Source: Candidatus Iainarchaeum sp. (GTDB lineage Archaea > Iainarchaeota > Iainarchaeia > Iainarchaeales > DTGL01). From it: DNA of 64,000 nt. The stretch covers positions 13,577-77,576 of the forward strand of contig JAOAJX010000006.1 in assembly GCA_026413945.1 (NCBI GenBank), in the 5' to 3' direction. Of this stretch, positions 5,127-27,100 are shown piece after piece; position 1 is the stretch's first letter, and each line of letters starts with the position of its first letter. The position numbers and the translations under genes were made by a program. Below the pieces are notes generated by a model that ran no database searches, was not told the origin of the DNA, and saw only the letters and a list, made by a program, of their open reading frames with translations.

Positions 5127-5678
5127 ATGAGAAAGGCAAAGTACCTTGAGGCATCACTTGCAATTTTTGTGCTTTCGCTGAGAACAAAGCTACTTGCTGG
5201 CCTAACGCTTGAAACAGCAATATTGAAGCTAAGGGATGAACTTTCAGGGGAACTGAAGGAAGAGCTATCAAAAATAATAGGTGAGGTAGATAAAGGTAAA
5301 GATATAAGCGATGCTTTTGCTCATGCAGCAACACAGACATGTTCTATTGAATTTAAAAAGGTTTTAAGCCATTTGAACCAGATTGCCCAGAATGGCTACT
5401 CGAGAAAAAACGATACGCTGAAGCTCTTGAGCAAGGAGCTTAGTTCAATGCAGCTTGCAAAGATACGCAATTACTCTTCAAAGCTAGCAATTATAAGCCT
5501 TATATTCATTGCGAGCACGGTTGTACTGCCAGCGCTTTGGCTTGCTTTTGTCGTGATGGGCTCGGCTTTTTTTGCGCTTGATATTGAGCCTTTGCATGTG
5601 CTTGTAGTAACAACAGTTGCATTCCCTATGATTGGCTCTGTTGTTCTGCTTTATATGAAGGAGGTTGCGCCAATATGA
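5127..5678 (+). CDS. Membrane platform protein, N-terminal half: one T2SS-F/FlaJ/TadB-like domain followed by TM helices.
   Basis: The track ORF starts at 5079 inside the preceding gene. The in-frame ATG at 5127, just after the ATPase stop at 5111-5113, is preferred. A soluble helical domain (LETAILKLRDELSGELKEELSKIIGEVDKGKDISDAF...) followed by the hydrophobic helices LAIISLIFIASTVVLPALWLAFVVMGSAFF is typical T2SSF architecture. It sits immediately downstream of a FlaI-like ATPase. Confidence 0.55.
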   Translation: MRKAKYLEASLAIFVLSLRTKLLAGLTLETAILKLRDELSGELKEELSKIIGEVDKGKDISDAFAHAATQTCSIEFKKVLSHLNQIAQNGYSRKNDTLKLLSKELSSMQLAKIRNYSSKLAIISLIFIASTVVLPALWLAFVVMGSAFFALDIEPLHVLVVTTVAFPMIGSVVLLYMKEVAPI

Positions 5679-9600: not shown

Positions 9601-11236
9601 TGATTCCCTTACCTCTATGTTTAAATCAAATTCAAATTCATATACAGCAAAAGCGGCAACAGAGCTTGATGAGAAAGTAAAAAAGTTCACAAGCGGGGCA
9701 AAACAAGACAACATTGTACAGGCAAATGTGCACCTTGAAGGCCCAACTACGGGAATACTCCAAGGTGAAGAGCTTTTTTCCTTTTGGTTTAAGGGCGAGT
9801 CAACACCAACAACATACAAAACAGAGGGACAAAAAGTGATTGCTTCAGATAATAACCGAGCAATCATTGTGGACTTCAAGAACGGAAGAATTCTCTTAGT
9901 GGATCAGAATGGCAACATTTTAGATGTTATAACTGAAAACGATGTGCCTTCTCGCCTGATTTCTACAAACACAGATATACCTGCTGAAGAGATTCCAAAG
10001 CGCTATACGCTTGTAGGTTTGCCAGACTCAAATGACCCAATGTTTGAGATGAACATAGACTCTGAGCTTATTGTGCTCATCCCTGAAATTTCCGAATGCA
10101 TATTGAAAGGCATAGAGTATCAAAGCGGCTTGGAATACAAACAAGCAGACTTAAAGCGCCTTAATCTTACTGATGTCTTTGGAAAAGTGCTTGCAATCAC
10201 TACAGACACGCACACGATAAAGGCAGTAGCGGAGCAAAAAAGGATTGTCGCTGAGGGAATGCCAAGAACAATGGTTGAAAGCCAAAATGCAAAAGCAATA
10301 GTTCTTGCAAACAGGGAAACAAAAATTAAAGATGGCAAAGAGGAGTATGTTGGCTTATTTGAGTCTGTGCAGTTTGAAAATGGTGTAATACTTTACAAGC
10401 CAGACACTCACGAGCTCATTATTTGGCTTAAAAGAAACAAGCAGGCAGAGCTCTCGGGTAATGATGTGGGTGGAATTAAGCTAAGCCCTGCGCAAGTTGT
10501 TGACCCTGAAACAAATTGCCCTGTGCCAGCAGTATCATTACAAGCAATTCCAAAGGAAACTGAAGGCATAGGCGCTTACCGTGTTGAGCAGTTCAATAAA
10601 TCATTAGCTGCCTCTGGGCCTTTCAATGTATTGGAAACACCAACAAGAAGATTTGTGTTCTTCGCAAAATACGAGCCAGATGGCAAATGCTCGGGCCTAG
10701 AATGCTGCAAGAATTACATAAGGGTTATAAACAAGGAAACTGGAGAAGTTTATGAGGCGCCCATTGAAACATTCCAGGTAAGACCTGATGGCATATACAT
10801 AAAGGATGGAAAAGGTAACGAGCACAATATAAAGATCACCGCAGATGATGGAAAACCTATGCTTCAATATAATAACTATCCGCCGGAGCCACTTACAAGT
10901 GCACAAGGCCCAAACGGCTCATTTTGGTATGATCCAACTGCAAACAAATGGTATGCAGAAAATGCACAGCTTTTGCCATTGCTTGAAGCATTTAGGGCCG
11001 GAGCCTTGACTCAAGCTGGTGCAGGCGGAGTCGTAACAAAGGCAGGTGACAATATTTTGAATGTATCAGGCCTTGGCTCATCAGGTGGCTTCAATCTACC
11101 ATCTTTGCCAGAAGACGTGGTTTTTCTAGTAGTTTACCTTTCTTTGTTACTTACTACAATAACCACAACACGTACCTTTTTAAGTAGAAATAGCAAAAAA
11201 AACTTCTCAATGCAAAAGCAAAAAGATTTTAAATAA
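6659..11236 (+). CDS. Large (1525 aa) secreted/surface protein of unknown function with an N-terminal signal anchor and a C-terminal TM segment.
   Basis: The N-terminus DISLVFLVWILINYQFVLPVYAADESSD is an uncleaved or cleaved signal. The body is long, hydrophilic and Cys-poor. The C-terminus is ...GGFNLPSLPEDVVFLVVYLSLLLTTITTTRTFLSRNSKKNFSMQKQKDFK, a TM plus basic tail. No catalytic motif was recognised. Confidence 0.6.
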   Translation: MLLEMMFDYFRLPKQLAKDISLVFLVWILINYQFVLPVYAADESSDEKKAAPIRDKFTCEMGQLSKEDSFKILKLLAEGLTGSKIASSTKQDTNKDREKLENPTIIIPIDANKGEAAKVPVADEKFNISEAIHLTNDWISGPYAFGLVLTDTLRVGRCNNLEDKNIPCPVVDKQLTLRNSGEGIVSDFKPLTDILAIKGKKPEDFTEEEYKEIREKLGLPEDAQDELEMRIAASDFNEINIQAYKRAQGKMIPNSILTYTFNAYGQTTCNSSDCTITIYSLFDKYYNNWFSMEMTFSTFGPTLVGQARKLFQHLGVSKTFLFRLSETELADRLRRSLYNSDALFGRRLRARMKMRAQQYPEVAKFTKELTEGKGWTSGYELLTNPSIPRTVSSDWLGAGGWMSKIDDPIVKRELYRQAKDIEKFTKTQRAFLREAKENYLKAAKSGLGSPQEMAARVEYGKTISEAMLDYTDTLSLDVPGWFSKYSPVGLYTQNIKGVGDVSPAWIAGDSAYMYDMLKKYSIDGHFGGGWPGNAYHTEGKNLVLYRLVPEEAKIKDITFDELQKGWFKYEGFFVQTDSGVLLPVNETSLNTLKTQMTGAKPLFSLNEVKKKPTGRLTPEDFATKLMETKNTLQLEIFAPESAEKITQILQARGFELRRYSSLLDRAIAYQDNFIHNYMRPAGGLKWTALFNMYWVGKRGLNQKFASAYMLPDTWREVRWPLGQGEIYDDAFIDFFSHEGSDQGDMFRRLMSLMPWEWLMLNTFEKFEPVKNMYERLTGSNVRTSVENLAIYATTPQDCTNCGILMRSGMDYRYYFTNFYSGRKIDSYILEDAVSENVKNWGSTLIMFSRHTDLEGKEKNVSGSSRISLEEAVKKKKTCADAVEEATMGISKYIGIGTLFKPHTIGGALALTDSLGYALFGFGAVFGTLAQQLVIAPKLQDCVDVDGGYYTHIFVPAKKEDKGKAASQLSAETAMNSIRSFVDSLTSMFKSNSNSYTAKAATELDEKVKKFTSGAKQDNIVQANVHLEGPTTGILQGEELFSFWFKGESTPTTYKTEGQKVIASDNNRAIIVDFKNGRILLVDQNGNILDVITENDVPSRLISTNTDIPAEEIPKRYTLVGLPDSNDPMFEMNIDSELIVLIPEISECILKGIEYQSGLEYKQADLKRLNLTDVFGKVLAITTDTHTIKAVAEQKRIVAEGMPRTMVESQNAKAIVLANRETKIKDGKEEYVGLFESVQFENGVILYKPDTHELIIWLKRNKQAELSGNDVGGIKLSPAQVVDPETNCPVPAVSLQAIPKETEGIGAYRVEQFNKSLAASGPFNVLETPTRRFVFFAKYEPDGKCSGLECCKNYIRVINKETGEVYEAPIETFQVRPDGIYIKDGKGNEHNIKITADDGKPMLQYNNYPPEPLTSAQGPNGSFWYDPTANKWYAENAQLLPLLEAFRAGALTQAGAGGVVTKAGDNILNVSGLGSSGGFNLPSLPEDVVFLVVYLSLLLTTITTTRTFLSRNSKKNFSMQKQKDFK

Positions 11237-12840: not shown

Positions 12841-13593
12841 TTGATAAGTATTGTGGAAAAGCAAGAAACAGACTTTAGTGGTTACACGTTAATAGAAGGA
12901 TTCCCAGGTTTGGGGCTTATTGGAACAATAACCGCAAATTACTTAGTGGAAAAGTTATCTTTTGAGAAATATGCACATATAGAAGCAGATTTCTTCCTGC
13001 CAGTTGTTAGGGTCCATAAAGGTTGGCCTAGGCATCCATCAATGATTTATGTTAATCATGAGCTTAAGCTACTTGTTGTATATTCGGAACAGATAATACC
13101 AAAAACATCAGTTTTTGAGGTTGCCAAAGCAATTGCTGATTGGGCAAAAAAAAGGAACATAGCAAGAGTTATATCTTTGGAGGGCATATACACTCAAAAC
13201 ACTGAGCAGAACAATTCAGAGGCTAATGATGTTTATGGGATAGCTTGCAATGAAAAAGCAAAAGAGGAGCTCCTTAAGCATAGTGTAAAGCTAGTCGAAG
13301 AAGGAATAACTAGCGGTGTAAGTTCAATTCTTATGCTTGAACTCACAAAAAGCAATGACATTATAAGCTATTGCCTTCTTGGCAAAGTATCTGTCATAGA
13401 AGACTACCATTCGGCAGCAATATGCTTAAATAAGCTCGCTCAGATTCTTGGGATTAAAATTGACACGCAACCACTTTTAAAGGAGGCAAAGCGCATGGAA
13501 GCCACACTCTCAAAACACATCAGAGATATGAAGAAAGTGCAGGACAGTGTGCAGAGATTTGAAGAAAGCGGCAACCCAATGATGTATACTTAA
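12841..13593 (+). CDS. PAC2-family protein (proteasome assembly chaperone-like, PbaA/PbaB-type).
   Basis: The N-terminal motif YTLIEGFPGLGLIGTITANYLVEKL matches the PAC2-family signature (LIeGfPGvGlvG...yL). It is about 250 aa with a TTG start and no nearby ATG. Confidence 0.55.
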   Translation: MISIVEKQETDFSGYTLIEGFPGLGLIGTITANYLVEKLSFEKYAHIEADFFLPVVRVHKGWPRHPSMIYVNHELKLLVVYSEQIIPKTSVFEVAKAIADWAKKRNIARVISLEGIYTQNTEQNNSEANDVYGIACNEKAKEELLKHSVKLVEEGITSGVSSILMLELTKSNDIISYCLLGKVSVIEDYHSAAICLNKLAQILGIKIDTQPLLKEAKRMEATLSKHIRDMKKVQDSVQRFEESGNPMMYT

Positions 13594-13614: not shown

Positions 13615-14151
13615 TTAGCCAGAGTAGAGATAATAAAGCACTCCAACTAAAATTGGCTCCATGAAAAAAAGGAACAGGGCGAAAAATATTAATGTGCTAA
13701 TATAAGTTGAAATAAAAAGTGCAACTTTTTTATTGAATTTCTTTCCTTCCAAAGCTCTTGCGATAAAGCTAGCCATAAAAACGAATGGCATGGAAAGTAG
13801 TGCGAAAAAAATAGATGTGATGAAAACTTTAAACATTGAGTTAGTCGCAGATAAAAATTTCTCGGAGAGTTCTGGCCTTAGCTCAGCTGGAATTTCACCT
13901 AGCTGCTCGCGTGGCAAAGAGATTATATAAGGAAAAATATAGGCCAAAGAAACAGCAATAAGCGAGAACAAAAAGGCAACTAGAAGGGCGCTTTGAAACC
14001 ATGAAATCCTTAATCGCTTCTGGAGTTTAACCTGAATGTATTTGCCAAAAATAGCCAATAAAAAGAACAAAATTGCGAATGGCAAACTACCCTTTAGCAG
14101 ATCTAATATAGATAAAAGCAGTGCTAAGATATTATCAAAAAATCCCGACAT
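13615..14151 (-). CDS. Small polytopic membrane protein (about 5 TM), unknown function.
   Basis: The 178-aa ORF is dominated by hydrophobic helices. It is convergent with the PAC2 gene across a T-rich 21-nt spacer. Confidence 0.5.
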   Translation of the reverse strand: MSGFFDNILALLLSILDLLKGSLPFAILFFLLAIFGKYIQVKLQKRLRISWFQSALLVAFLFSLIAVSLAYIFPYIISLPREQLGEIPAELRPELSEKFLSATNSMFKVFITSIFFALLSMPFVFMASFIARALEGKKFNKKVALFISTYISTLIFFALFLFFMEPILVGVLYYLYSG

Positions 14152-14210: not shown

Positions 14211-14891
14211 ATGGACAAAACAGAATTTACAACATACCATGTTATTCAACATATAGACTTAAGCTCAATCCCGAGAAGAAAAAGAAGGTTTTTTAGAAAT
14301 AAAAATCGCATAATAACTGCAGTATCTAAGCATATAGCCAACATGCCTGATGTAAGGGAAGCCGAAAAACAGCGCATAATACAAGAGCTTAGGGAAAAGC
14401 TTGAACACCTTGCAAAAGAGGAACTTATTCTTCTTTCAGAGAGAATATTTGATCAGATGAGCAAAGAAGAAGCAGAAAAGATTGTCGAAAAGAGCATAAG
14501 GGAGAAAAGAAAGGGCACTGAGCAGCTTACGAAAGCAGATATAGAGGAAATAGTCAACAGCATATATGAGCATATAAAAGAATCTAAACGCAACGAGGTT
14601 ATTGAAAAACAAAAAGAAGAAACAAATAAGGAAAAAGAATTGAAGAAAGTAAAAGAGCGCTTATCTTCGCTGAAAAAAGAGCCTGAAAAAGAAGTGATGC
14701 AACCAAAGCAACGAATTCAGGAAAGCAAGAATATACCTAGCGATGATGAAATATTGGCTGAACTTAAAAAAAGTTCTTTTGATGACGAGCTAAGTGAAAG
14801 TGATCTCTCATTAGGTGATAAAGAAAAGGATGAATCATTGTTCAGGGAGCTTGAGGAACTTACAAGTGAAGAGAAGAAGAAGAAAAAGTAA
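14211..14891 (+). CDS. K/E-rich coiled-coil protein, unknown function.
   Basis: It is 226 aa and highly charged (EKQRIIQELREKLEHLAKEE..., KKKKK C-terminus), with no TM. Confidence 0.45.
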   Translation: MDKTEFTTYHVIQHIDLSSIPRRKRRFFRNKNRIITAVSKHIANMPDVREAEKQRIIQELREKLEHLAKEELILLSERIFDQMSKEEAEKIVEKSIREKRKGTEQLTKADIEEIVNSIYEHIKESKRNEVIEKQKEETNKEKELKKVKERLSSLKKEPEKEVMQPKQRIQESKNIPSDDEILAELKKSSFDDELSESDLSLGDKEKDESLFRELEELTSEEKKKKK

Positions 14892-14894
14892 TTG

Positions 14895-15653
14895 TTAAAT
14901 ATCATTTATTCTTGTACAATTAAGGCTGTTTGGACCTATTAAGCTCTCATTTTCTACTCCAGGTAGCATTCCTGCTGAATGCCACATTATAAGGCCGGTG
15001 AATATGACTACGCTCTTACTTTCTCTACCGCTGTAAGAAGGAACAAAGCGCTTGAAAAGAAGCGTAATAACCCTTGTGCTTGTGGAATTTGGTGCATGTT
15101 TGAGAACAAGGTTTAAGGCGCGATTAAGCTTTAATTTTGGCTCGCAAAAGTATTCCAAGCGCTCTACGTTTTGTGGCCCCTTTATATCGTTTATTTTCAT
15201 ATAGACAAAAACAAAGCGATCTGTTTGATTTCCAGTTGGATTTCCTGTTGGTTCAGGTGCATAATCTGCTGGGGTCCAAAAATATAAGATATAGTCATAG
15301 TTTACTGCTCTCGGGGACATTATTTTGTCAAGGACCCTCTTTGCAAGAATTTTTGTATCATTTGCTATTGTTCCTGTGTTTGCATAATCCTCTTTCATCT
15401 TTGTGAGAAGCCAATCAACCTCATCTGCTGTTTCTAACTCGTCTGATGTGAAACGCGGTATGCTTGAATTAAGCATTGCACGCAATGCAGAAGATGCATA
15501 ATCTTCATTGAAGTACTTATGAATGTTTATTTCAACGCCACGGCCGTACGAAAACGAAATATAAGCCATTCCAGCAGCAAGTGTCGCAACAATTACTAGC
15601 ATAAAAAGTGCATCTGTTATTGAAGCCTGTGCCTTTTCACATTTCATTCCCAT
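14895..15653 (-). CDS. Pilin-like protein with an archaeal class III (type IV pilin-type) signal peptide.
   Basis: The N-terminus is MGMKCEKAQ|ASITDALFMLVIVATLAAGMAYI: a short charged leader, then a ~22-aa hydrophobic helix, then a soluble domain. It shares the EKAQ leader motif with the ORF at 16833-17384. Confidence 0.6.
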   Translation of the reverse strand: MGMKCEKAQASITDALFMLVIVATLAAGMAYISFSYGRGVEINIHKYFNEDYASSALRAMLNSSIPRFTSDELETADEVDWLLTKMKEDYANTGTIANDTKILAKRVLDKIMSPRAVNYDYILYFWTPADYAPEPTGNPTGNQTDRFVFVYMKINDIKGPQNVERLEYFCEPKLKLNRALNLVLKHAPNSTSTRVITLLFKRFVPSYSGRESKSVVIFTGLIMWHSAGMLPGVENESLIGPNSLNCTRINDI

Positions 15654-16147
15654 ACCACCACTACCAAAAGCATTGGTTTTGTTATTGGTTTTCTCAGCGC
15701 ACTATTATCTTTATAAGATACAGGCACCATGTGGACTATAACACGGCTGTTTAGCTTAAGCTTTTGTTCTATCTCAAGTGGGCAAGAAAAAAAGTTACCG
15801 TCTTGTGAAAATATTCTTTTACCTTCGTTCACGAAAGCATATATATCTATGTGCTCAAATGGTTGATTAAGGTCTACAATACCAGCCCTAAAATTATAGC
15901 CACGAGGATTAAGGCCATAGCAGATACTCTCAAATTCAGCATAATCATCTATTTCACGATCACTCTTAAGAAAGCTGGCAATGCTCATTGCATTAGAAGT
16001 TAAGCTAAAATTGGCAGATGTTTGCCTGTATATTGTATGGGCGCTATAGAAAGATGCAAAGAAAATAAGCAATGCAAATATCAGTGGAACCAGGCTTGGT
16101 AGGTCATCACCAATTGGACCAATATAGCCAGCAGCTCTTTTAAACAA
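15644..16147 (-). CDS. Pilin-like protein (class III signal peptide-like N-terminus).
   Basis: The N-terminus MFKRAAGYIGPIGDDLPSLVPLIFALLIFFASF precedes a soluble domain. There is a 10-nt overlap with the downstream gene, indicating an operon. Confidence 0.5.
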   Translation of the reverse strand: MFKRAAGYIGPIGDDLPSLVPLIFALLIFFASFYSAHTIYRQTSANFSLTSNAMSIASFLKSDREIDDYAEFESICYGLNPRGYNFRAGIVDLNQPFEHIDIYAFVNEGKRIFSQDGNFFSCPLEIEQKLKLNSRVIVHMVPVSYKDNSALRKPITKPMLLVVVVWE

Positions 16148-16828
16148 TTAAACCCCCCAGCATGTTGGAGCATCCCTGCTTATGCAGTCAGCAATGTTAA
16201 CATTGAAGCAGTTGCTCAAATCTTTTCTTTTCCTGTACAAGTAGCAGCCGACTAACTGTTTGTTTTGCTCGCAAATGCCTTTGGCAGTAGTTGAACACGG
16301 TATCAGATAAAGATATGGTTTGCCCTTATAAATCTCATGAACCACAGTAAGTTGATCCATCGTTATTGGTGCAGATCTAACATCAAGCACTGTTCTTTCT
16401 GTAGGACACAAAAGCGCTTCCTTTTGGTCATATGAAAATATTTGTATATCTGAGTTTAGGTCAAGCTGCGAAGAGCTCACTACTGTTGGATTACCACGCT
16501 TCTTTAGGTAATCGTTGCGTTCAATAATTGCAATTATAAGGTGCTGTTTGCCTGAAGTTAAAGATGTCTCTTTTCTCAATTCTACTACATAATAAAAGTC
16601 CATAAGGTTGTAAAAAGAGTACTTCCGTCTAAAAGCAATCTCTTGTGAATCGCAAAGGGCTTTTTGGCTCACCACACGAGAGATTGTTTCGGCAGAGCTG
16701 CTTGCAATATTTTTAGAGATGTCATAAAGCAACGTTGACCTAAATGAAAACGCAAATCCAACAATTATTGCAAATAAGGCAATTGCAAGTATTAAAAGAT
16801 TGATTTTGCTCAGCGTAAATTCCATCAT
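16148..16828 (-). CDS. Pilin-like or membrane-anchored protein.
   Basis: The N-terminus is MMEFTLSKINLLILAIALFAIIVGFAFSF, followed by a Cys-containing soluble domain. It abuts its neighbours at 0-4 nt spacing. Confidence 0.5.
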   Translation of the reverse strand: MMEFTLSKINLLILAIALFAIIVGFAFSFRSTLLYDISKNIASSSAETISRVVSQKALCDSQEIAFRRKYSFYNLMDFYYVVELRKETSLTSGKQHLIIAIIERNDYLKKRGNPTVVSSSQLDLNSDIQIFSYDQKEALLCPTERTVLDVRSAPITMDQLTVVHEIYKGKPYLYLIPCSTTAKGICEQNKQLVGCYLYRKRKDLSNCFNVNIADCISRDAPTCWGV

Positions 16829-16832
16829 AAAA

Positions 16833-17384
16833 TCACTTTTTGTAATATGCGCAAACTATTGGAAATGTCTGCCTCGGGGGTGTTTCGTTGACCAAATCAT
16901 AGTGACCTATTGGCATGTTATCGCGAAGATCTATTAGCGTGTAACCTTCGGAAGACCTGTCTGGACAATTATCAAGCGTTGTTGGGAAGTAAACCTGCAC
17001 TGCAGTTTTAAGGCAAAATCGCTCAACAAAATCTTTGCTGTCAAACAAAATGAAAAGGCATGCAGGAGTTGCTATATCACATGCGGAAGCACATATTACT
17101 TCATCAGTTGTAGAGACAACTTTTATCCTCTGGTTTCTATAGCACGATGGTGGGTTAAAGTAAAGCTTTGACCGGCTTCTTAATTCAGAGACGTTTTCAA
17201 GCTCAGAGCGAAATTTTTCAATGCTTGCCCTTAAGCGATTTTTGCAATCCTGATTAAGCATATCGCTCATTACCATAAAACCAATGTAGAGGACGAAACC
17301 CATTATTATCACAGCAATTAAAACCTCAAAAGGCGCAGATTCTTGCGCCTTTTCATGCATTCTGCTTTTAACCGTAGATATCAT
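16833..17384 (-). CDS. Pilin-like protein with a class III signal peptide.
   Basis: The track ORF extends to 17552 with an implausible N-terminal extension. The internal starts at 17384 (MISTVKSRMHEKAQ|ESAPFEVLIAVIIMGFVLYIGFMVM) or 17360 (MHEKAQ...) give a canonical short-leader plus hydrophobic-helix pilin N-terminus. Confidence 0.55.
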   Translation of the reverse strand: MISTVKSRMHEKAQESAPFEVLIAVIIMGFVLYIGFMVMSDMLNQDCKNRLRASIEKFRSELENVSELRSRSKLYFNPPSCYRNQRIKVVSTTDEVICASACDIATPACLFILFDSKDFVERFCLKTAVQVYFPTTLDNCPDRSSEGYTLIDLRDNMPIGHYDLVNETPPRQTFPIVCAYYKK

Positions 17385-17552
17385 GAAGTCACACTCTTTG
17401 TTGTTTTTGTCACTATCTTTTGGGTATTTTGGTACATTGGTTTTATAATATATATAATGAGAAGCGCAACAATTGCAAACACAAGGATTAAGTAAACTGC
17501 AGACCAATCGCCTTGGGCCTTTTCTTCTGGCAAGATGCCTTTTTTCAATCAC

Positions 17553-17658
17553 ACCACCATTAAATTAGAATATGCTTTGGACTATATAAAGTTTTTCAAT
17601 TTAGTTAAATTTAATAATAAGTTAAAATATCAATCCTAAAGAAGAGGCGTGAATTAAA
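17553..17658. promoter_or_regulatory. AT-rich divergent intergenic region between the pilin operon (-) and the ATPase gene (+). It probably carries two archaeal promoters (TATA-like ctatataaag at about 17586-17596).
   Basis: It is the only sizeable non-coding gap between divergent operons of module 2. TATA-like octamers are present. The call rests on inference and no TSS data are available. Confidence 0.3.
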
Positions 17659-19938
17659 ATGAAGATTGGCGGTTTTAAAGTAGGGGAATATGCATTTAAG
17701 GAAGAGGGCAAAAAAAAGCATCTTGTATTTGATTGTGCCTCATGTGTTTATCATGCATCAATATCCGATGACCGCGTTTGCATGTATCATGTGCTTTATG
17801 CACTCAATGAGATAGATGCAGATGTAATTGTACTTTCCGAGGTTTATGAGAGGATATATGATGAAAAGCAAACCCTTATTTTGAAAGAAATTGTAAAGCT
17901 TATTCAAAAGTTCTCGATGGAGGCGCCTTGGTCATACAATAACCTTGTCAATCCGCAATACCTTAAGGATGAAGGCGTTGTAAGTGCAAGACATAAAATG
18001 ATTGTAACTATAACTCATGACCTAATAGCATATGATCCACTCGGTGCCTACTTTGCATGTCTGCGTGAAATTAACAGGGAAAAGGAAACGTTCTCTAGCA
18101 GCGGCCCTGATTACAAAGCAGGTTCTGCTATTTACCTCAAGACACTGCTTTACATTAAAAGTGCATTTGAGGAATGCGAACTAATAAAGCAGACAAAGAA
18201 GTTTTTAACTGAGCTCAAGGAGATGCCTGAATTTAAGGAAATTTATAGGGCTTTGTTTGAAGCGCAAATAAAGCCGGCCTTTATCGGATCGCGTCTTGTT
18301 TTTAGAGAAGAAGAAGGCATGGAGCTTCTCGATGAGTATTTGGTTAAGAATAGCACAGTCCAGATATTTAGCCATCCAAACCAGACACAAAATCTTTACT
18401 TCATAAATCCCCCCGAATATACTTTGAGCCCAGAAAAATATTTCGTACTTAGCAAGGCAAAAGAGATTGTCTCTGGCTATACGCCGGGCAAGGCATCACT
18501 GAGCACAGTTGCAAAATCGAGGGAGTATTTTGAGCGTTTATATAGAAGCACTATAATGGAAATAGCACAACAGCATAACATCTCGCTAAACAAAAAAGAA
18601 ATTGTTGAACTCAGCGAAATTGTTGCAAGATACAGCGTTGGTTATGGCATACTTGAAATACTTCTAAGCGACAGGAAGCTCACAGACATCTACCTTGACT
18701 CCCCAATAGGCCAGACGCCGCTCTATGTTATGCACTCTGATTTTGATCAGTGCCTTACAAATGTCCTTTATACAGAAAGGGAAGCATCTGCGCTTATCAC
18801 AAAGCTCAGAGCTATGAGCGCAAGGCCTTTTGATGAAGTACATCCAGTGCTTGATTTTGACCTACCTGAGCTCGAGACTAGGGTAGCAGCTATAGGACCG
18901 CCACTTGCACCAGATGGCGTTGCTTTTGCATTCCGCCTACATAAAATAACGCCTTGGACATTGCCTCAATTCATAGATGTAAAATACCTAAATCCTTTGG
19001 CTGCTGGATTTATTTCATTCTTAATAGATAATCAAGCAACAATGCTTGTAACTGGTTCAAGAGGCTCTGGCAAGACATCTTTGCTTAGTGCATGCATCCT
19101 TGAAATTCCTAAGAACACAAGGATTATTGTGCAAGAGGACACGCTTGAAATACCCGTAGAATACATGAAAAAAGTTGGTTTTAACATACAGCGCCTAAAA
19201 ACAAGATCGCCCATAAGTGTGTCAAAAACTGAAGTTGAGGTTGAACCAGAGGAAGCGCTTAGGACTGCCCTGCGCTTGGGCAACAGCGCGCTTGTCATAG
19301 GAGAGGTGCGTTCAAAAGAAGCAAGAACATTATACGAAGCGATGCGCATAGGTGCCGCAGGCAATGTTGTAATTGGCACAATACATGCTGACTCAGCCTA
19401 TGCTGTTTGGGATCGTGTTGTTAATGACCTTGAAGTTCCCACCACTTCTTTCAAGGCAACAGATATAGTTGTTACGGCACGCCCAATAAGGTTTTATGGC
19501 TCATTAAAAAGTAACAGACGGGTTGTTGAGATAACAGAAATAAGGAAGCATTGGATTGAGGAACCTGCAAGAGAAGGCGGCCTTTTAGATCTGATGAGAT
19601 ATTCTGCAAAAGAAGATAATCTTGAGCTTTTGGAGGACAATCTTAAAGAGTCTGAGCTTTTTGATAAAATCTCGAGAATATCTGGACAAACCCTTGAAGA
19701 GATGTGGAAAGATATAAGAATGCGTGCAGAGTCAAAGCGCTACCTAGTAGAAATGAAAAACAAGCATGATATACCTGAGTTATTAGAAGCTGACACTGCA
19801 TCAATGGCAAATGACAAGCTTATGCTTCTGAGGGAAAAACAAATCAGAGAGTTTGGCAAAGTAAACTATGATGAAATTCTTGAGCAGTGGAAGAAATGGC
19901 TAAATGATAAAATAATACCAAGGCTTATAAAGAAATGA
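17659..19938 (+). CDS. Type II/IV secretion-family ATPase (FlaI/ArlI / PilB/TadA-like) with a ~160-aa C-terminal extension.
   Basis: Walker A is LVTGSRGSGKTSLLSA and the Walker B/Asp box is NSALVIGEVRSKEA. The His box is GTIHADSAYAVWDRV. It is 759 aa. Confidence 0.85.
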   Translation: MKIGGFKVGEYAFKEEGKKKHLVFDCASCVYHASISDDRVCMYHVLYALNEIDADVIVLSEVYERIYDEKQTLILKEIVKLIQKFSMEAPWSYNNLVNPQYLKDEGVVSARHKMIVTITHDLIAYDPLGAYFACLREINREKETFSSSGPDYKAGSAIYLKTLLYIKSAFEECELIKQTKKFLTELKEMPEFKEIYRALFEAQIKPAFIGSRLVFREEEGMELLDEYLVKNSTVQIFSHPNQTQNLYFINPPEYTLSPEKYFVLSKAKEIVSGYTPGKASLSTVAKSREYFERLYRSTIMEIAQQHNISLNKKEIVELSEIVARYSVGYGILEILLSDRKLTDIYLDSPIGQTPLYVMHSDFDQCLTNVLYTEREASALITKLRAMSARPFDEVHPVLDFDLPELETRVAAIGPPLAPDGVAFAFRLHKITPWTLPQFIDVKYLNPLAAGFISFLIDNQATMLVTGSRGSGKTSLLSACILEIPKNTRIIVQEDTLEIPVEYMKKVGFNIQRLKTRSPISVSKTEVEVEPEEALRTALRLGNSALVIGEVRSKEARTLYEAMRIGAAGNVVIGTIHADSAYAVWDRVVNDLEVPTTSFKATDIVVTARPIRFYGSLKSNRRVVEITEIRKHWIEEPAREGGLLDLMRYSAKEDNLELLEDNLKESELFDKISRISGQTLEEMWKDIRMRAESKRYLVEMKNKHDIPELLEADTASMANDKLMLLREKQIREFGKVNYDEILEQWKKWLNDKIIPRLIKK

Positions 19939-19950
19939 AGTCGTGGTTAT

Positions 19951-22308
19951 ATGCCTGAAAGAGCGAAAAAAAGCACTGGTTACACAATAGGTCAGCTTTA
20001 CAAAGGCATTGTTGTAGAGCGCGGCTTACCTGAAGAAGGTGAAAGCAAGCTGATGAAAAAAAAGATGCCAAGGTATGTGCGGTTCTGCAAGAGAGTTGCA
20101 AGAATGGTGCCTGCGATGGGCGGGCAGAAAAAATTTCCAGAGGAGCACAACAATGCAATTGAATTTCTTGGCTGGGATCTTAGACCAGAAGAGTTTTCAG
20201 CAGCAGTCAACTTCATTGCACTAATTCTTGTTTTTTTAGCTTTCGCTATTTGGCTTGTAGTTGTATCTAGCCCAATTGCCAAAGCGCTTTCGACAGTGCC
20301 TTACAGTGCGTATGCATTGCTTGCTATGCTTGTGGTTGCCGCACTTTCAGTAGCAAATTATATTTACCGTTATCCAATATCAGCTGCACAGGCAGAACAG
20401 AAAAAAGCCCTTGGGTATATACCTGAGATTGTAGGTTACATGATAATGTCAATGAAGTTAACACCAAATCTTGAAAAAGCGGTTGAGTTTTCTGCAGACC
20501 ACGGAAGGGGCAAAATAGCTGAAGAGTTTAAGAAGCTCACATGGGATATAAGCACTGGAATATATACAACCATAACTGAGGGGCTTGACAGAGTTGCATA
20601 CAGATGGGGCTCTTATGCGCCGGAATTCAAGCGTGCACTAGTTAGGATAAGGGCATCAGTGCTTGAGGACACTGAAGCAAAAAGGGATGCGGTGCTAAAC
20701 AAAACCATGGATGAGCTTCTTGCCACCATTAAAGAAAAAATGGATGCTTATGCAAGAAGCTTAAGGCAGCCTGCTGTTGTGCTTTTTTTTGTGGGTGTGC
20801 TTTTGCCACTTATCCTCATGATAATACTGCCTATTGGTTCAGTATTCAGCGGCTTGCCACTTGCAAATCCTCTCGTAATAATTGCTTTGTACAATGTAGC
20901 AATACCTCTTGGGTTGATTTATTTTTCATTAGGGATTTTAAAGCAGCGACCGCCTACACAAGAAGCACCAGAGATACCCGATGATTATCCAGGATTACCA
21001 CCAAAAAATAAAATTAGGTTTGGAAATAATTATATTGACATCTTCTTGTTGGTTGGAATTGTTGCTTTTATTGGCATAATTGCTTCTTATTATTTTCATC
21101 AGGAAGGCTTTCCCCCAAAAAGCATGCTTAGGTCAGAGTATGGCGAAAAACCTTCTCAAATTATAAGAGCTGACCGCACTGAAAAAGAGGTACTTGAAAG
21201 AAGTGGTTACCCAGAAGATTATTTTGATATACCTAATGGTGTGCTTTATAAGCAATATTTGAGCAGTTATTCAGAAAGTAGTAGCGCTGACATAGAGAAA
21301 AAGGCAGAAAATAAGGTTTTATTTGAAAAAAAAATATTCTTTATGACAAAAGAAAATGATATAACGCCCTACAATCTCTGGTTTGGGCTTATATTAACTT
21401 TTTCCATCTGTCTTTTCATCGTTTTATATTATCCGGCGAAATACAAAAGAAAGATACAGCTTGAAATATCAGCCATGGAAAGCGAATTTAAAGATGCACT
21501 TTATATTATGGCTTCACGTCTCGGAGAAAACAGGCCAATGGAAGAAGTGCTCAAGCAAACTATTGATTTTTTACCTAACGCAGTAATAAGCAAACAAGTG
21601 TTTTCAAAAACAATTGATAACATCACTCTTCTTGGAATGCCTTTGGACAGCGCTGTTTTTGATCAAAAGTTTGGCTCTGTTGCAAGGATACCCTCTGAAG
21701 TTATAAAAACCGGGATGCGCCTTGTAGTAGATGCTTCAACCTTGGGCACGAGTATTGCTGCAAGAACATTGGCATCTTTGTCTATACAGCTTGATAACAC
21801 TGAAAAGGTTGCAAAAGCGCTGAAGGAAATGATTGATGAGATAACAGTAACAATGCGCACCATGGCAGTAATAATAGCCCCTGTTGTCTTGGGCATAACA
21901 ACGGCACTTTTCAAGATAGTTGTGCTTACGATGGCTAGCATATCACAAAGCTTAGAAGGAAGCAGCTTAGGTGGACTATCTGGAAACATACCAACTGTGG
22001 GGACAAGTGGAAGATATGGAAACCTTGGTGCTTTAACTGAATCATTTGCAAAGGTAAGTGTAAGCAGCTTTGTAAAACCGGAAGCACTAGCACATATTGC
22101 TGATCCGCTGCAATTCATCATCATAAGCGGAATATATGTATTTCAAATTGTTGCTATAATCCTATACTTTGTAACAATGCTTGAAGAGCGAAATAAGCTT
22201 CTTCTCAGACTGAACATCGCAAAGTATCTTCCACTTGCTTTGGCAATATACATTGCGACAGTCATGGGCACCAACGTGCTTCTTGAAACGATGACAAGCG
22301 GAGTGTAA
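19951..22308 (+). CDS. Type IV pilus/archaellum-type platform membrane protein (FlaJ/TadC/PilC-like) with two T2SS-F domains.
   Basis: It is a 785-aa polytopic protein. Two soluble helical T2SSF-like domains (ALGYIPEIVGYMIMSMKLTPNLEKAVEFSADHGRGKIAEEF... and MESEFKDALYIMASRLGENRPMEEVLKQTIDF...) are each followed by TM bundles. It lies directly downstream of the ATPase. Confidence 0.75.
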   Translation: MPERAKKSTGYTIGQLYKGIVVERGLPEEGESKLMKKKMPRYVRFCKRVARMVPAMGGQKKFPEEHNNAIEFLGWDLRPEEFSAAVNFIALILVFLAFAIWLVVVSSPIAKALSTVPYSAYALLAMLVVAALSVANYIYRYPISAAQAEQKKALGYIPEIVGYMIMSMKLTPNLEKAVEFSADHGRGKIAEEFKKLTWDISTGIYTTITEGLDRVAYRWGSYAPEFKRALVRIRASVLEDTEAKRDAVLNKTMDELLATIKEKMDAYARSLRQPAVVLFFVGVLLPLILMIILPIGSVFSGLPLANPLVIIALYNVAIPLGLIYFSLGILKQRPPTQEAPEIPDDYPGLPPKNKIRFGNNYIDIFLLVGIVAFIGIIASYYFHQEGFPPKSMLRSEYGEKPSQIIRADRTEKEVLERSGYPEDYFDIPNGVLYKQYLSSYSESSSADIEKKAENKVLFEKKIFFMTKENDITPYNLWFGLILTFSICLFIVLYYPAKYKRKIQLEISAMESEFKDALYIMASRLGENRPMEEVLKQTIDFLPNAVISKQVFSKTIDNITLLGMPLDSAVFDQKFGSVARIPSEVIKTGMRLVVDASTLGTSIAARTLASLSIQLDNTEKVAKALKEMIDEITVTMRTMAVIIAPVVLGITTALFKIVVLTMASISQSLEGSSLGGLSGNIPTVGTSGRYGNLGALTESFAKVSVSSFVKPEALAHIADPLQFIIISGIYVFQIVAIILYFVTMLEERNKLLLRLNIAKYLPLALAIYIATVMGTNVLLETMTSGV

Positions 22309-22313
22309 CTGCA

Positions 22314-22760
22314 ATGATGAACAAAGGTTATTTTTGGCCTTTTAGGTTGTTGATTGCAACAATATTTGCGCTTGCGATGCTCACAATAATAATTTCTGCT
22401 TTGGAGTACTTCAAAAATGTGGAAAGATCAACAAGCTACGAGAGGTTTGAAAACGGCTTCAAAAATGCGCTATATGCTGCAAGCAGCGATCCAAGTTATG
22501 GCTTGGCAAAAGAGAAAAACATCACAATTGTTGGAATAATAACAGCAGGCCAATTTTCAGAAAAATACAAAATACCCTCAGAATGCATAGAGTTTCAGGC
22601 AATAAGCGGCATGCTAATAAAGCTCTCAGAAAACAAGCGAAGGGTTATCATTGAGAAGGAAATAACGATTGATGTTTATTTCCATTGCATACGATACAAC
22701 GTTGGAGAATGCGAAATAAAATGCTACATATCCTTTGGCAAAGCGCCAAAAATTGGTTAA
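22314..22760 (+). CDS. Pilin-like protein with a class III signal peptide.
   Basis: The N-terminus is MMNKG|YFWPFRLLIATIFALAMLTIIISAL. It is 148 aa with a Cys-containing globular C-terminal domain. Confidence 0.6.
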   Translation: MMNKGYFWPFRLLIATIFALAMLTIIISALEYFKNVERSTSYERFENGFKNALYAASSDPSYGLAKEKNITIVGIITAGQFSEKYKIPSECIEFQAISGMLIKLSENKRRVIIEKEITIDVYFHCIRYNVGECEIKCYISFGKAPKIG

Positions 22761-22836
22761 AGGTTACATTGGCTATACAAAAGGTTTAAATATAAGAAAT
22801 AGTATTCTTATGAAATATAACTCGTGAGGTGAGGAT

Positions 22837-23439
22837 ATGATGCGTATGAATTCAAAAGGGCAGGCTTTCTCAACATTCCAGCTGCTTATATCTGCAATAA
22901 TTGCGCTGGCTATACTTGTGATCCTGCTTTCCGTGCTAGGAATAATTCCAAATCTTTTCAATATATCCCAGAATCCAGTGGATGCGATGGTTGACAAGAT
23001 AAAAGATGCGAGGAACAAGCCAGCCGTGCCAGTACAAGGCGGTAAGGTAAATTTCACAAAGGACAACAGAACTGTTACAACTGAAAGCATAGCAAGTGTA
23101 AGTGGTGTTGGTCTTGAAAAAGAACAAATATGCTTAAGCCCGGGCCAATTTATGGGCCAAGCAGAAATAATCAGCAAAGGCCAAGATGGTTCAAAAGAGA
23201 AGCAATGGACTGTAGTAGAGGATGGTTCAAGGATAACTTACAATAAGGACAATGTGCAGACAACATTTACAGTTATTTGCCATTCTTCAGCGACAAGGCT
23301 CAAGACTTACATTGAAGAGGATCTTCCAGAGATAAAGGTAGAGTGGATGGACAGCGGCTCTTTTAAGTGCAAGTGCCTTGATAATGAGCAATTCAAGGAG
23401 CAGCCATGTTGCCTAATAGTGCTTAAATACTCTAGCTAA
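22837..23439 (+). CDS. Pilin-like protein with a canonical archaeal class III signal peptide.
   Basis: The N-terminus is MMRMNSKG|QAFSTFQLLISAIIALAILVILLSVL, with a KG|Q prepilin-peptidase-type site. The 200-aa protein has four Cys in its C-terminal domain. Confidence 0.7.
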   Translation: MMRMNSKGQAFSTFQLLISAIIALAILVILLSVLGIIPNLFNISQNPVDAMVDKIKDARNKPAVPVQGGKVNFTKDNRTVTTESIASVSGVGLEKEQICLSPGQFMGQAEIISKGQDGSKEKQWTVVEDGSRITYNKDNVQTTFTVICHSSATRLKTYIEEDLPEIKVEWMDSGSFKCKCLDNEQFKEQPCCLIVLKYSS

Positions 23440-23452: not shown

Positions 23453-24103
23453 ATGGCCAAAAAAAGCGCATCTAAGAAAAAAAGCCCCAATACTTTTATA
23501 GGACACTCTTGGCAAAGATTTAGCAAACAGAGCTTGAAGAAAGAGCTTTTGGCATCAGCAAAGTTTCTAATTTTTTTTCTGATTTCTTTTTCCATTATTT
23601 TCATTATTTTTTCTTTTCTGCCAATAGAAATTTTCGAATTTTTCACAGCAAAGATATCTGCAGCAATTCTCGAAGCCGTGGGCTATTCTACCAAAATAAT
23701 AACCGATGAACCCGTAAAGATTATTGTGAACTCTAAACACACGATTGAGATAAGCTACCTATGCACAGGAATTATTGAAACTATCGTGGTTGTAAGTGCG
23801 GTTGCAGCATCACTTGGAATAAGTCTCAAGAAAAGGCTCATTGGTGCTTTGGCAGGAGCTATTTTTGTGAATGTGCTTAATATATTAAGGATAATTGTAA
23901 CAATCGTTGCAATATCGAATCTGAAAGATATTGGCTTTGTGGATTTTATACATAATGTGCTTTTCAGGGCAACTCTTTTTGTGGGCATCGCTGTTTATTA
24001 TGCTGTCTGGTTTTTTGCCTCAACAAGAAGCTTTAATCCAATAGCACGTTTTAAGCTATGGCTTTTCCCTAAAATAAATTGTAGAAGAAACAAAAAACAA
24101 TAA
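23453..24103 (+). CDS. Small archaeosortase/exosortase-family-like polytopic membrane protein.
   Basis: It is 216 aa with about 5 TM helices. A candidate active-site Cys lies in a membrane helix (ISYLCTGIIETIVVV) and a conserved Arg in NVLNILRIIVTI, as in EpsH/ArtA-family transpeptidases. The call is family-level only, made by motif pattern and not by a search. Confidence 0.4.
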   Translation: MAKKSASKKKSPNTFIGHSWQRFSKQSLKKELLASAKFLIFFLISFSIIFIIFSFLPIEIFEFFTAKISAAILEAVGYSTKIITDEPVKIIVNSKHTIEISYLCTGIIETIVVVSAVAASLGISLKKRLIGALAGAIFVNVLNILRIIVTIVAISNLKDIGFVDFIHNVLFRATLFVGIAVYYAVWFFASTRSFNPIARFKLWLFPKINCRRNKKQ

Positions 24104-24173: not shown

Positions 24174-27100
24174 ATGTTAACAGATAAGCTCGGCTCTATT
24201 TACGCAGGCATAGAGGAGAAATGGTTTGAGCTGCTTAAAGCACTGCAGGAAAAAGGCATTCCTGCGTATAGCTATGCTGAGTTCTTAGAAAGCAGGGGCA
24301 TACCATCTTTGCCTTTTACAATAGCCATCATAATACTCCTTCTTGTAATTTTGTTTTCATTTTCTTTTGGGGGCGCATACACGGATGTGAGCTTAACTGT
24401 TACAATAAGGGATGATCAGGGGCAATCGCTAAGTGATGTCAAGCTCGAATTATATAATGACGATGGGCAAACACTTAAAAGTGAAACTGTGCAAAGTGGT
24501 TACAAGATTGAACTTAAAAGAGTTAAGATTGGCTCAACCATAACAGCATCTGCTTCAAAATCTGGTTACAGAAGTGCTTCGGCCGAAAAAGAGATAAATT
24601 CCAAAACCGCAACTATAAGCATAACACTTAAGAGAGAGGCAAGGCTTGTTTCTGCAAAAGTCCGGCTCATCGATGAGCTTACCTCAACCTTGATCAGAGA
24701 TGCGAGGTGCGAAGTTTCTTTTGATAAGAATACATTAGGCATTACTAGAGACTATGATGGCTTGTTTTTGGTAAATGTGCCACAGAAAACAGATGTGGTG
24801 CTAAAATGCACAGCTAATGGCTATGAAGACCTTCAGGAAGCAATGCGATTTGATGACGGTGAAATCAAAGTAGTAAAGTTGAAGCCAAAATCGGTTGATG
24901 TTAATTTAAGCACTCTACTGATAAGCGTATATGACGAGGAAACAAAGCAGCTTATAAAAGGGACAAGCATTCGCATTATAAACTCATCAACAGGCGTCAC
25001 GATAACAGACATTAATTCACAGAGCGGCGATTATACTGAAAAGATAAAGATAAACACCCAGGTTAGGATAATTGTAGAAAAAGCAGGTTATATGAGCTAT
25101 GTTGAAGATTTCACCATAAGAACCGCAGAGGTTGTTAAGAAAATATACTTAAAAAAAGGCGGTGCACAACTTATAGTAAATGTTACCTCAAAGGATGGCA
25201 TTGTGCAAGTAAATGCTGATGTTTCGCTTTTTGACTCAAACTTCCAACTCGTTTCTGCAAAAAAAACTGCCGTTTTAGGGAATGCTGCTTTTGATGGTAT
25301 TGATCCAAACAGGGATTATTATTTTAATGCATTCAAAGAAGGTTTTCTGCCGGCTTATGGAAGAATAAGTGCAGGGACCAAAAGCTTGGATATTAAACTT
25401 GAAAAGCCAACAGCACAAAATTCTGCATTGGTGAAAATAACAGTTAGGAACAGCTCAGGCAATATTACAAACAATGCAGCGCTGAAATATTATCGCATTA
25501 TAAATGCATTCAAGATTCCTCTTGGCATTCCTGTGAGAAAAACAGGGCTTACAGGCACAATTATAGAAACCCTTCCAGAGGGTACATTCCTTATAGCTGC
25601 CGAGACTGAAGTAGAGTATGGTGAAAAGGAAATAACAGTGATGGCAGGCATCGACCAACAGGTTGACATAAACATGTCAAGAAAGCCAAACTTTGTTGAG
25701 CTTCGATTAATTGATGGGAATGGAATGCCTTTGAAGGGAGAAGTTATTGTAAAGAGCAAAAGCGGAAAGACACTTTTTGCTGGAAATGTAAATGGGGGCG
25801 CGATTTTTGACAGTGAGATGAATGAAAGCTTTTTGGTGAGCGTGAAAACGCCTGATGGCAAAACATTTGAGCAGGAAGTAAGGGTTGGCGCAAACAATGT
25901 TGCTGAAGTCCGATTAGGGGCTGATAAAAAGGAACTAACAGATGGTGTCAAGCCCATAATAGAGTTTGCTGGAGTTTTTGATTCTGGAGGAAAAAGCATT
26001 GAAGGAGTTACGGCTGGGGAGTTTGCTTGGCTGCGTTTCAATGTCAGTTTTCCCCAGGGTGAGAAAACAGGCATACATATAAGGGTTGGGCCTGATAGCA
26101 TTGCGTCTGCCGATGCCCAAGAGATTGGAATTTTTGGTTTTGATGGAAATGCAAGCAGCTTTGTGTATGGCAAAAGCTATCAGGCACCTTTAGGTGAACA
26201 AAAGGATCTTGCAAGCAAAGGTGCAGCGAATGAGAGAAACAAATGGCTTGAGCTTTACTTTAACAAAGCACCATCGCAAACAGCAGTAAGCATAAAGGTA
26301 AAAACAGATAATATAAGCAGAGAAAAAGACTTTGAAGTACACTACAGAGCTTGGAGCGAAATAGGTACAAAAGTATTCAGAGACCCTGCAGACAGCGTGC
26401 TTGGAAATGAGAAAACAAGCAATGCAAAGCAAGCGCTTTATGCTGAAACAAAGATTGCAAGAGTAAAGGTATTTGAAGGAAAAGCAAGCTGCTCTGAAGA
26501 ACTCTGCATAGCTCTTGCTTTAATAGACTCAAACAATGTGAAGGTTAAAGAAGATGGTTTCTCTGCAGTTGAGGGTCAAACATATGCTCTAGAAATCTCT
26601 GTAAATTCTGGCAAAAAGATGAGTGCTGAAATTGTAGTAAGAAGCGAAAACTCAAATGTATTGCTTTCAGAGCTTACCGAAGATGTGTTGTCCTTTAGCC
26701 CGAAGGGAGAATTTTCAAAGACTGAGTTAAGGGGCTCCTTAAAACTCGAGGCAAATTCTTCAAAAATTGTAAGGGCTTACTTCAAAGGCAAGTCAGCCGG
26801 TACAGCAACGCTTGAGGCCCTTGTTAGGAGCGGAGACCTGAACGCAAATAAAAAGATAAGTTTCAATGTAACTGGAAGCAAAGAAATGCTTGCTGAAATT
26901 TATAAGAAAGGTGAAATAAAGGCAGGTGAAAAGCTAAGAGTTACCTTAAGGGATTCTGAAACAAAGGATCCCATCACAAATGCTTTTGTTTCAATAACAA
27001 GGGAAGGTGAGGTGCTTTTAAGCACTACTGGAAACAACACAAATGAAAACGGTGCAAATGGCATTTATGTCTTGGGTATAGATAAGCTAAGCCCGGGAAA

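Follow-up and report, generated by a model that had tools for sequence, protein, structure and literature searches.

A predicted type IV pilus-like module with a candidate mini-pilin and a linked archaeosortase-family gene in a Candidatus Iainarchaeum genome

The 64-kb stretch that we analysed (hereafter the window) comes from a Candidatus Iainarchaeum/Diapherotrites (DPANN) metagenome-assembled genome (MAG; GenBank locus tags beginning N3F05_) and contains a secretion ATPase gene and a platform gene flanked by small genes for pilin-like proteins. Our analysis indicates, with a probability of roughly 85%, that the genes of this region specify a single type IV filament machine, similar to a type IV pilus, in a DPANN archaeon; this reading draws on the gene content, motifs, conservation pattern and synteny observed in the window and its relatives. 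The seven small pilin-like proteins are named here by their length in amino acids (p55, also called the mini-pilin, p148, p167, p183, p200, p226 and p252). Together with a 563-residue protein, they would be synthesised as prepilins and cleaved after [K/R][G/A/S] by a class III signal peptidase whose gene would lie elsewhere, so that each mature protein would begin with Q, Y or F (+1) ahead of a conserved hydrophobic helix; and a hexameric-type ATPase of 759 residues, docked on a platform protein of 785 residues, would lift the subunits from the membrane into the filament. A cassette of four genes in fixed order, p183-p226-p167-p252, would most likely supply minor (priming or tip) pilins, and an archaeosortase-family gene, giant immunoglobulin (Ig)-repeat proteins and a 1525-residue protein with a PSLPE tail would make the region a cell-surface and adhesion island.

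We compared the window (G+C content ~39%) with related loci. Three of them, from Candidatus Iainarchaeum MAGs, are near relatives, with ATPases that are 97% (L001), 91% (L002) and 85% (L003) identical in protein sequence to that of the window; the others include L009, L010/L011, L012 (a complete 1.05-Mb genome, CP064981.1) and L013/L014 (labelled Micrarchaeota). The window protein p200 is a 100% match to GenBank protein N3F05_04445 of a Candidatus Diapherotrites MAG, encoded on an 84.5-kb contig.

Gene content and class III signals of the pilin-like proteins

The original prediction described four minus-strand genes with pilin-type N-termini that diverge from an ATPase-platform-pilin-pilin operon. 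These four genes exist between 14895 and 17384, with gaps of -10, 0 and +4 nt, and each encodes a protein with one N-terminal hydrophobic helix: p252 (14895-15653), the final gene of the block, p167 (15644-16147, TTG start), p226 (16148-16828) and p183 (16833-17384). The total of four was too low, since p55 (17381-17548, minus strand, TTG start) makes five. The AT-rich region dividing the divergent genes is real (24% GC), but its length was given as 106 nt, which does not fit the supposed end of the block at 17384 (the gap would then be 274 nt); the spacer runs from 17549 to 17658 and measures 110 nt. The plus-strand order holds as described, with a T2SSE match (1.8e-20) in the ATPase (17659-19938), a T2SSF match (1.7e-5) in the platform protein (19951-22308) and two small prepilin-like genes after them, p148 (22314-22760) and p200 (22837-23439).

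The ATPase belongs to the PilB/FlaI/TadA/VirB11 superfamily, and all four of its motifs are present (Walker A at residue 466, Asp box at 491, Walker B at 544 and His box at 571). Its conserved core begins near residue 295 of 759, behind an N-terminal extension of ~290 residues. The nearest solved relatives in a PDB comparison were A. fulgidus GspE (2OAP, 3.5e-29), CpaF (4.5e-23) and FlaI (1.8e-21). Because it scored ~132 bits against each of the NCBIfam FlaI and TadA models, far under their equivalog cut-offs (550 for FlaI), the protein is best described, from these scores, as a secretion ATPase of the superfamily, orthologous neither to the archaellum enzyme nor to that of Tad. The platform protein is of the single-gene PilC/TadC/FlaJ type, with ~9-10 hydrophobic segments and a single T2SSF domain at residues 172-294 whose 25.2 bits equal the Pfam cut-off; it had no sequence match in the PDB, and its gene directly follows the ATPase gene in all relatives. 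Within the ATPase extension, residues 26-44 (window 17659-17800) hold a C-x2-C...C-x-Y-H pattern that is kept between the window (FDCASCVYH...RVCMYH) and L009 (FDCRNCVYS...KACRYH) and may be a metal-binding site. The orthologous pilus ATPase of L013 and L014 (875-6322) is 1815 residues long and carries two LAGLIDADG-domain inteins just after Walker A (window residues ~472-490).

A class III signature is present in p55, p148, p167, p183, p200, p252 and the 563-residue protein. Their N-termini, with an arrow at the putative cleavage site, read MKKGILPEEKA↓QGDWSAVYLILVFAIVALLIIYIIKPMYQNTQKIVTKTTKSVTS (p55), MMNKG↓YFWPFRLLIATIFALAML (p148), MFKRAAG↓YIGPIGDDLPSLVPLIFALL... (p167), MISTVKSRMHEKA↓QESAPFEVLIAVIIMGFVL... 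(p183), MMRMNSKG↓QAFSTFQLLISAIIALAIL (p200), MGMKCEKA↓QASITDALFML... (p252) and MKVRG↓FNLFTALLAMIIVV (563-residue protein). In a loose scan for [KR][GA] followed by a helix, run over all window open reading frames (ORFs) of at least 90 residues, five of the six small genes of this size beside the ATPase and platform genes matched, the exception being p226. Outside the module, the matches among real genes were a Sec-type signal at 77-1447, a protein with several transmembrane segments at 57312 and the 563-residue gene at 32258. The prepilin pattern thus stands above chance, since it matches five of six module genes and few others. A strict FlaFind-style pattern, on which we place no reliance, matched p252 alone.

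Across all of the pilin families, the leader ahead of the site differs between orthologues in both sequence and length, and conservation starts at -2/-1 and peaks in the hydrophobic helix. For p252, a HMMER search run in full against 1.84 billion representatives gave 135 clusters, and the site is present in 127. The residues at -1 in these 127 representatives are G (111), A (15) and M (one), those at -2 include K (78) and R (37), together 115, and the leader has a median length of 9 residues (range 4-46). Information content is at most 1.6 bits at -6 to -3, rises to 2.8 at -2 and 3.8 at -1, and lies at 2.6-3.9 from +2 to +11 (+1 and +6 were set by the search pattern). The near orthologues of L001-L003 keep [KR]A↓QASITDALF behind a variable leader; distant orthologues read KG↓QAAVTDALFF. 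In the p183 family (16 members), -1 is G in nine and A in seven, leaders range from 8 to 46 residues, and Q at +1, S, A, P, F and E (QxSAPFE) and much of the helix are invariant.

The remaining families have sites of the same general form. The p200 site is [KR]G↓Q(A/E/G/S)(F/S)(S/G)(T/V)F(Q/K)LLI, and the classical SKG↓QAF site that had been noted in the gene at 22837 is indeed there. The p148 family reads [KRA][GA]↓(Y/Q/E), as in RA↓YFWPF (L003), KG↓QEFSGFRLL (L004/L006), KG↓QEFEVFNIL (L009) and KG↓EFGVFRLL (L013), and the p167 family reads [KRA]G↓(Y/F)(I/L/V)GPIGDD(L/I)PSL, with variable leaders. In p55 the site is K-A↓Q, K-S↓Q or R-S↓Q, depending on the locus.

From these alignments, KA↓Q ('EKAQ') and KG↓Q are one signal class, in which KA↓Q is a minority (~12%) glycine-to-alanine variant. 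The motifs CEKAQAS (p252) and HEKAQES (p183), on which the original prediction of two leader classes was built, are present as described, but G and A alternate at -1 within single families, in L009, L010 and L013 the orthologues in syntenic position to the two EKAQ genes carry KG↓Q, and the E is not kept (SKAQ in L001 p252, SRAQ in L002 p252 and L003 p183, KNAQ in L012). A single class fits the rule for archaeal signal peptidase III, by which -2 (positive), -1 and +1 weigh most (PMC3387779). The status of KA↓Q as an ordinary prepilin-site variant matters for tuning FlaFind-type predictors on DPANN genomes.

The claim of pilin-type N-termini is thereby upheld by the orthologue comparison, apart from p226, which lacks a canonical site in this genome. 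Its three-residue pre-sequence, MME↓FTLSKINLLILAIALF, leads into FTLSKINLL without any [KR][GA]; relatives have MMA↓F (L003), MLG↓F (L009/L010), MLA↓F (L013) and MID↓F (L012), so that -1 is E in the window, L001 and L002, G in L009/L010, A in L003/L013 and D in L012. F at +1 and TLSK(I/L/M)NLL are conserved, and the protein has 8 Cys. We read p226 as a pilin-like protein with a non-canonical site here, which may go uncut.

Structure models offer a further view of two of these families. The AlphaFold2 model of the p183 family (predicted local distance difference test score, pLDDT, 84.5) has a 50-residue N-terminal helix (residues 19-68) followed by a beta-sheet, and a model of p200 (pLDDT 85.6) has a helix at residues 7-33 and an alpha/beta domain that matched no solved pilin. 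One relative is labelled 'pseudopilin PulG' by one source, and the UniRef cluster name of another starts 'Class III signa...'.

Synteny, promoters and candidate major subunits

The gene order of distant relatives suggests how the divergent arrangement arose. In L009, whose ATPase is 64% identical to that of the window, a single strand carries ATPase-platform-p148-p200-mini-pilin-p183-p226-p167-p252; L013/L014 have the same colinear order (ATPase ~60-64% identical over its two exteins), and the L010 contig, which begins at p200, shows it from there onwards. Followed along its own strand, the minus block of the window is mini-pilin-p183-p226-p167-p252, which matches the distal half of these colinear operons. 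Because distant relatives hold all seven genes colinear and in the same order, the minus block is, on this comparison, the distal half of an operon that was once colinear, inverted beside the ATPase gene. The p183-p226-p167-p252 cassette also appears to move as a unit, since L012 has it apart from any ATPase, with no mini-pilin alongside. In L003, the pilin-like genes other than p55 are 48-56% identical to those of the window, against 85% for the ATPase; fast evolution of this kind is typical of surface-exposed subunits.

Two further genes accompany the cassette. A polytopic membrane protein of 178 residues (13615-14151, minus strand) is syntenic with it, and homologues of 175-180 residues follow the cassette in L001, L009, L010, L012 and L013. 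We considered this protein as a divergent prepilin peptidase and rejected it, as it has no GxGD and no conserved Asp pair across L009/L010. The second, a highly charged protein with an IPRRxKRF motif (14211-14891), follows p252 in L001, L009, L010 and L012, and some relatives have a C-terminal zinc ribbon. Both may be unrecognised accessory components.

Within the 110-nt spacer we propose two divergent promoters, read by eye and by alignment, with their function suggested by the archaeal B recognition element (BRE)/TATA consensus. Ahead of the p55 TTG on the minus strand, at a distance of 33-48 nt, is AAAAACTTTATATAG; its TATA box, TTTATATA, is the complement of 17583-17590, and GGTGGTG (complement of 17552-17558) sits just ahead of the TTG. 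The mini-pilin has its own TTTA(A/T)ATA box 25-45 nt upstream in L003, L009, L010 and L013, even within colinear operons. Upstream of the ATPase ATG, a 32-nt block, TTAGTTAAATTTAATAATAAGTTAAAATATCA (17601-17632), is invariant in the window, L001, L002 and L003, and its flanks have diverged. This block probably holds the ATPase promoter, and since it is longer than a BRE/TATA element requires, a regulator may bind there too. A third box, TTTAAATA, belongs to p200 (22785-22792), followed by a Shine-Dalgarno-like GAGGTGAGG at 22826-22834. A sigma-70/terminator scan, a method ill-suited to an archaeon, stayed at background (28 found versus 24.8 expected), and tRNA and Rfam scans of the window gave no matches.

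The filament body is most likely built from p55, whose predicted mature part of 44 residues would be Flp/EpdE-like, and/or from p200. We propose these two as major subunits because their own putative promoters suggest that they would be produced in larger amounts than the rest. The mini-pilin gene is annotated in GenBank (N3F05_04425), overlaps the start of p183 by 4 nt and encodes an EEKAQ motif. It stands directly upstream of p183 in L001, L002, L003, L009, L010/L011 and L013, and at 65% its identity in L003 is the highest among the pilin-like genes. An extension of p183 from a GTG at 17552 (ORF 16833-17552) was rejected, as it is not conserved (in L001-L003 the frame is closed 1-4 codons upstream of the ATG) and p55 fills that DNA in another frame. 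We also judged the 81-residue call of the mini-pilin in L010 to be over-extended, its opening codons being the conserved TATA box. At least two p200 paralogues occur on other contigs of the same MAG, N3F05_03290 (49% identical) and N3F05_03125 (P0007 and P0009); an exact-sequence look-up gave no record for these paralogues or for the window ATPase.

The archaeosortase-family gene, giant proteins and other neighbours

The original reading of an archaeal type IV pilus module with an ATPase, a platform and several prepilin-like genes is supported, but it missed p55, the history of the inverted cassette, and two genes downstream of p200 that encode an archaeosortase-family protein and the 563-residue prepilin-like protein. 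The archaeosortase-family gene (23453-24103, plus strand; a membrane protein of 216 residues) starts 13 nt after p200. Its product bears the TIGR04178 signature (35.1 bits versus a cut-off of 23) and matches Exosortase_EpsH (26.6 versus 25.7), and fits none of the named subfamilies (ArtA-ArtG, XrtX etc.), the best being ArtD with 37.6 bits against a cut-off of 125 and the others also below theirs. Cys104 of its LCTG motif, Arg146 and His167 are invariant in the window, L003, L009 and L013. In three lineages the gene adjoins the ATPase/pilin operon, each time arranged or oriented differently.

Among 25 window proteins, a PS[LM]PE motif occurs once, at residue 1481 of the 1525-residue Sec-signal protein (6659-11236, plus strand), directly before its C-terminal helix; the tail as a whole is PSLPE, a transmembrane helix and basic residues. 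PSLPE-type tails are kept in relatives (LPSLPED in L001, PSMPEG in L009 and IPSLPES in L012). The gene lies ~12 kb from the archaeosortase gene, and from this neighbourhood we infer that the protein is a plausible candidate for a dedicated archaeosortase substrate. The two may form a dedicated sortase-substrate pair, perhaps involving a surface-layer protein.

The next gene downstream (24174-32252, plus strand) encodes a giant, adhesin-like Ig-repeat protein of 2692 residues, with CarboxypepD_reg matches in four stretches (3.3e-18) and weak SpaA and Big_1 matches. A 42-residue N-terminal segment and the motif [KR]G↓IP(S/F)(L/F)P(F/L)TIA after it are kept in the window (...ESRG↓IPSLPFTIAIIILLL), L003 and L009; this resembles a class III site whose leader is unusually long and is itself conserved, which makes it a putative site. 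In all, four giants of 2296-2826 residues with CarboxypepD_reg/SpaA/Big_1 repeats (starting at 24174, 34060, 41454 and 49958) occupy 24174-56848, and they share an apparently cytoplasmic N-terminal motif (...K/N-G/K-I-P...) ahead of a single helix. Five nt after the 2692-residue gene, the 563-residue protein (32258-33949, plus strand, GTG start) has 16 Cys and matches no Pfam family; it may be a large 'modular' pilin.

Elsewhere in the window, a second type IV filament module (3374-6586) combines a 579-residue ATPase (T2SSE, 5e-38), which has N-terminal 4Fe-4S ferredoxin-type domains, with a split platform (two T2SSF genes, 5079-5678 and 5675-6586), and showed no prepilin genes of its own. The fusion of ferredoxin and ATPase is possibly of interest, as in the Aap pilus the Fe-S protein is reportedly a separate one (bioRxiv 10.64898/2026.04.22.720090). 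A homologue of PAC2-family proteasome-assembly chaperones (12841-13593, 3.7e-37) is syntenic in L001 and L009. An 818-residue ORF at 61545-64000, open at the window end, is, judging from its translation, presumably the N-terminal portion of a B-family DNA polymerase.

Alternative readings and comparison with known systems

Several results weigh against a pilus-like machine. As the original prediction had remarked, a prepilin peptidase is not visible in the window (no Peptidase_A24 match in ORFs of at least 100 residues), and none was found within 10 kb on either side of the loci in L009, L012 and L013. Neither the window pilin-like proteins nor 32 relatives matched Class_IIIsignal/DUF361, Pilin_N, N_methyl, Flp_Fap or archaellin models of Pfam and NCBIfam at E-values up to 1-10. 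The residue at -1 of p226, E here and D in L012, is one after which no known prepilin peptidase should be expected to cleave, and three distant p55 relatives in the databases read ESA-ASDFG, without K/R at -2. The lack of curated matches, the p200 model without a pilin fold match, the site of p226 and the single match (p252) of the strict FlaFind-style pattern would suit a reading in which the N-termini are ordinary Sec signal peptides or uncleaved anchors and the products of the small genes are membrane or secreted proteins of unrelated kinds, placed by chance beside an ATPase and a platform. We consider this very unlikely. Sec signal peptides have a poorly conserved hydrophobic core and are removed, whereas here the hydrophobic helix is the best-conserved part of the small proteins, which argues that their signals are not of Sec type, and conservation starts exactly after [KR][GAS]. 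Seven genes also keep a fixed order beside the ATPase and platform genes in lineages whose ATPases are just 60-64% identical, and the p183 model resembles a pilin in its long-helix-plus-sheet architecture. Still less credible, to the point that the alignments refute it, is the idea of two distinct leader classes, EKAQ and KG↓Q, read by two specificities or two peptidases as with FlaK/PibD and EppA in Methanococcus. Three minus-strand proteins of the window do share E-K-A-Q where those of the plus strand have K-G, and archaea with two specialised peptidases are known (PMC3387779, PMC6098224); yet both residues occur at -1 inside the p183 (9 G/7 A) and p252 (111 G/15 A) families, Q at +1 is common to both supposed classes, the E is unconserved and the EKAQ genes have KG↓Q in their syntenic orthologues.

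A different role for the same machine is possible, though we think it unlikely: a short pseudopilus or bindosome-like device that exports, displays or anchors the giants and the 563-residue protein, possibly for attachment to host cells. The linkage to the giant Ig-repeat proteins and the archaeosortase-family gene is kept in three lineages, the 563-residue protein has a class III-type RG↓F N-terminus, the giant next to the sortase gene carries the conserved [KR]G-IP-hydrophobic motif, and a preprint on type IV filaments (TFF) proposes that proteins with class III signals functionalise archaeal TFF machines. The conserved mini-pilin and p200 look instead like abundant filament subunits with putative promoters of their own, the pilin cassette of L012 lies away from any ATPase or giant gene, and a G or A at the matching position is missing from the three remaining giants. 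A life attached to other cells is assumed for DPANN archaea; their pili and giant surface proteins are leading candidates for making that contact. In a speculative extension of the pilus-like reading, which we hold only tentatively, the region could be the core of a DPANN-specific attachment organelle: a filament of the 44-residue, Flp-like pilin, primed by the four-gene set of minor pilins and coupled to an unclassified archaeosortase with its PSLPE-tailed protein, would display giant 'modular pilins' or adhesins (the 563-residue RG↓F protein and perhaps the 2692-residue RG↓IPSLPF protein) to hold the host.

Returning to the type IV pilus-like machine, an archaellum is ruled out because no archaellins or Fla accessory domains were found in any window ORF searched, and the FlaI score was 132 bits against 550. 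Tad/Flp pili resemble the locus in having a mature pilin of ~45 residues, little beyond one helix, together with larger pseudopilins, and the ATPase is clearly related to CpaF (4.5e-23); mature Caulobacter PilA, for example, has ~45 residues. Unlike them, the locus has no Flp_Fap match, G↓xxxxEY motif, TadZ or secretin, and its sites are of the archaeal type with K/R at -2. The Epd pili of Methanococcus maripaludis (System 1/clade 1, EppA-dependent) likewise pair larger minor pilins with a major pilin that is very short and lacks a globular domain, all in a multi-gene operon, and Q at +1 after [KR]G is common to both. Szabo et al. reportedly described EppA substrates with Q at +1 in 2007. Epd loci have a split platform and an in-locus EppA, whereas this locus has one platform gene, no peptidase nearby and no Class_IIIsignal/DUF361 match; having neither the split platform nor EppA, it is not Epd/System 1. 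The fixed-order, four-gene unit, with one member lacking the usual processing or charge features, recalls the minor-pilin sets of bacterial type IVa pili and type II secretion systems (FimU-PilVWX, GspHIJK), by analogy only, as those sets have no sequence relationship to this cassette.

Type IV pili have been reported in DPANN genomes, including Diapherotrites (PMC8561730). Mancarchaeum acidiphilum Mia14 has two type IV pilus loci, one of Methanococci/Thermococci type and one of 'euryarchaeal' type, and a single, unlinked FlaK-like peptidase (PMC5498576). Compared by description only, the window likewise holds two ATPase/platform sets and, as in Mia14, linked surface proteins; unlike this locus, the paper describes no mini-pilin or archaeosortase link.

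The closest description is that of 'System 2' loci, in which the ATPase is extended at its N-terminus, one gene encodes the platform, some pilins carry signal peptidase III motifs and others do not, and large adhesins occur (bioRxiv 10.64898/2026.04.22.720090). Judged by listed features only, our module fits System 2 (clade 2, for example Haloferax volcanii PilB3-PilC3 and PilA1-6; PMC4858521): both have an extended ATPase, a single platform, several pilins, some without a class III site, and large adhesin-like proteins, and the nearest solved relative of the ATPase (A. fulgidus GspE, 2OAP) and the presumably unlinked peptidase are further likenesses. Unlike System 2, the pilins of this locus match no curated model, and it has a 55-residue mini-pilin and a linked archaeosortase-family gene. 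The locus is thus a known kind of type IV pilus-like system, expected in this lineage, and no new kind of system. What the present analysis adds is the mini-pilin, the history of the inverted cassette, the non-canonical p226, the putative promoters and the recurrent linkage to an archaeosortase and giant adhesins; for Iainarchaeota/Diapherotrites, these data provide a parts list of seven small prepilin-like genes in a kept order, including the mini-pilin, with three candidate promoters and the link to the archaeosortase and giant-adhesin genes.

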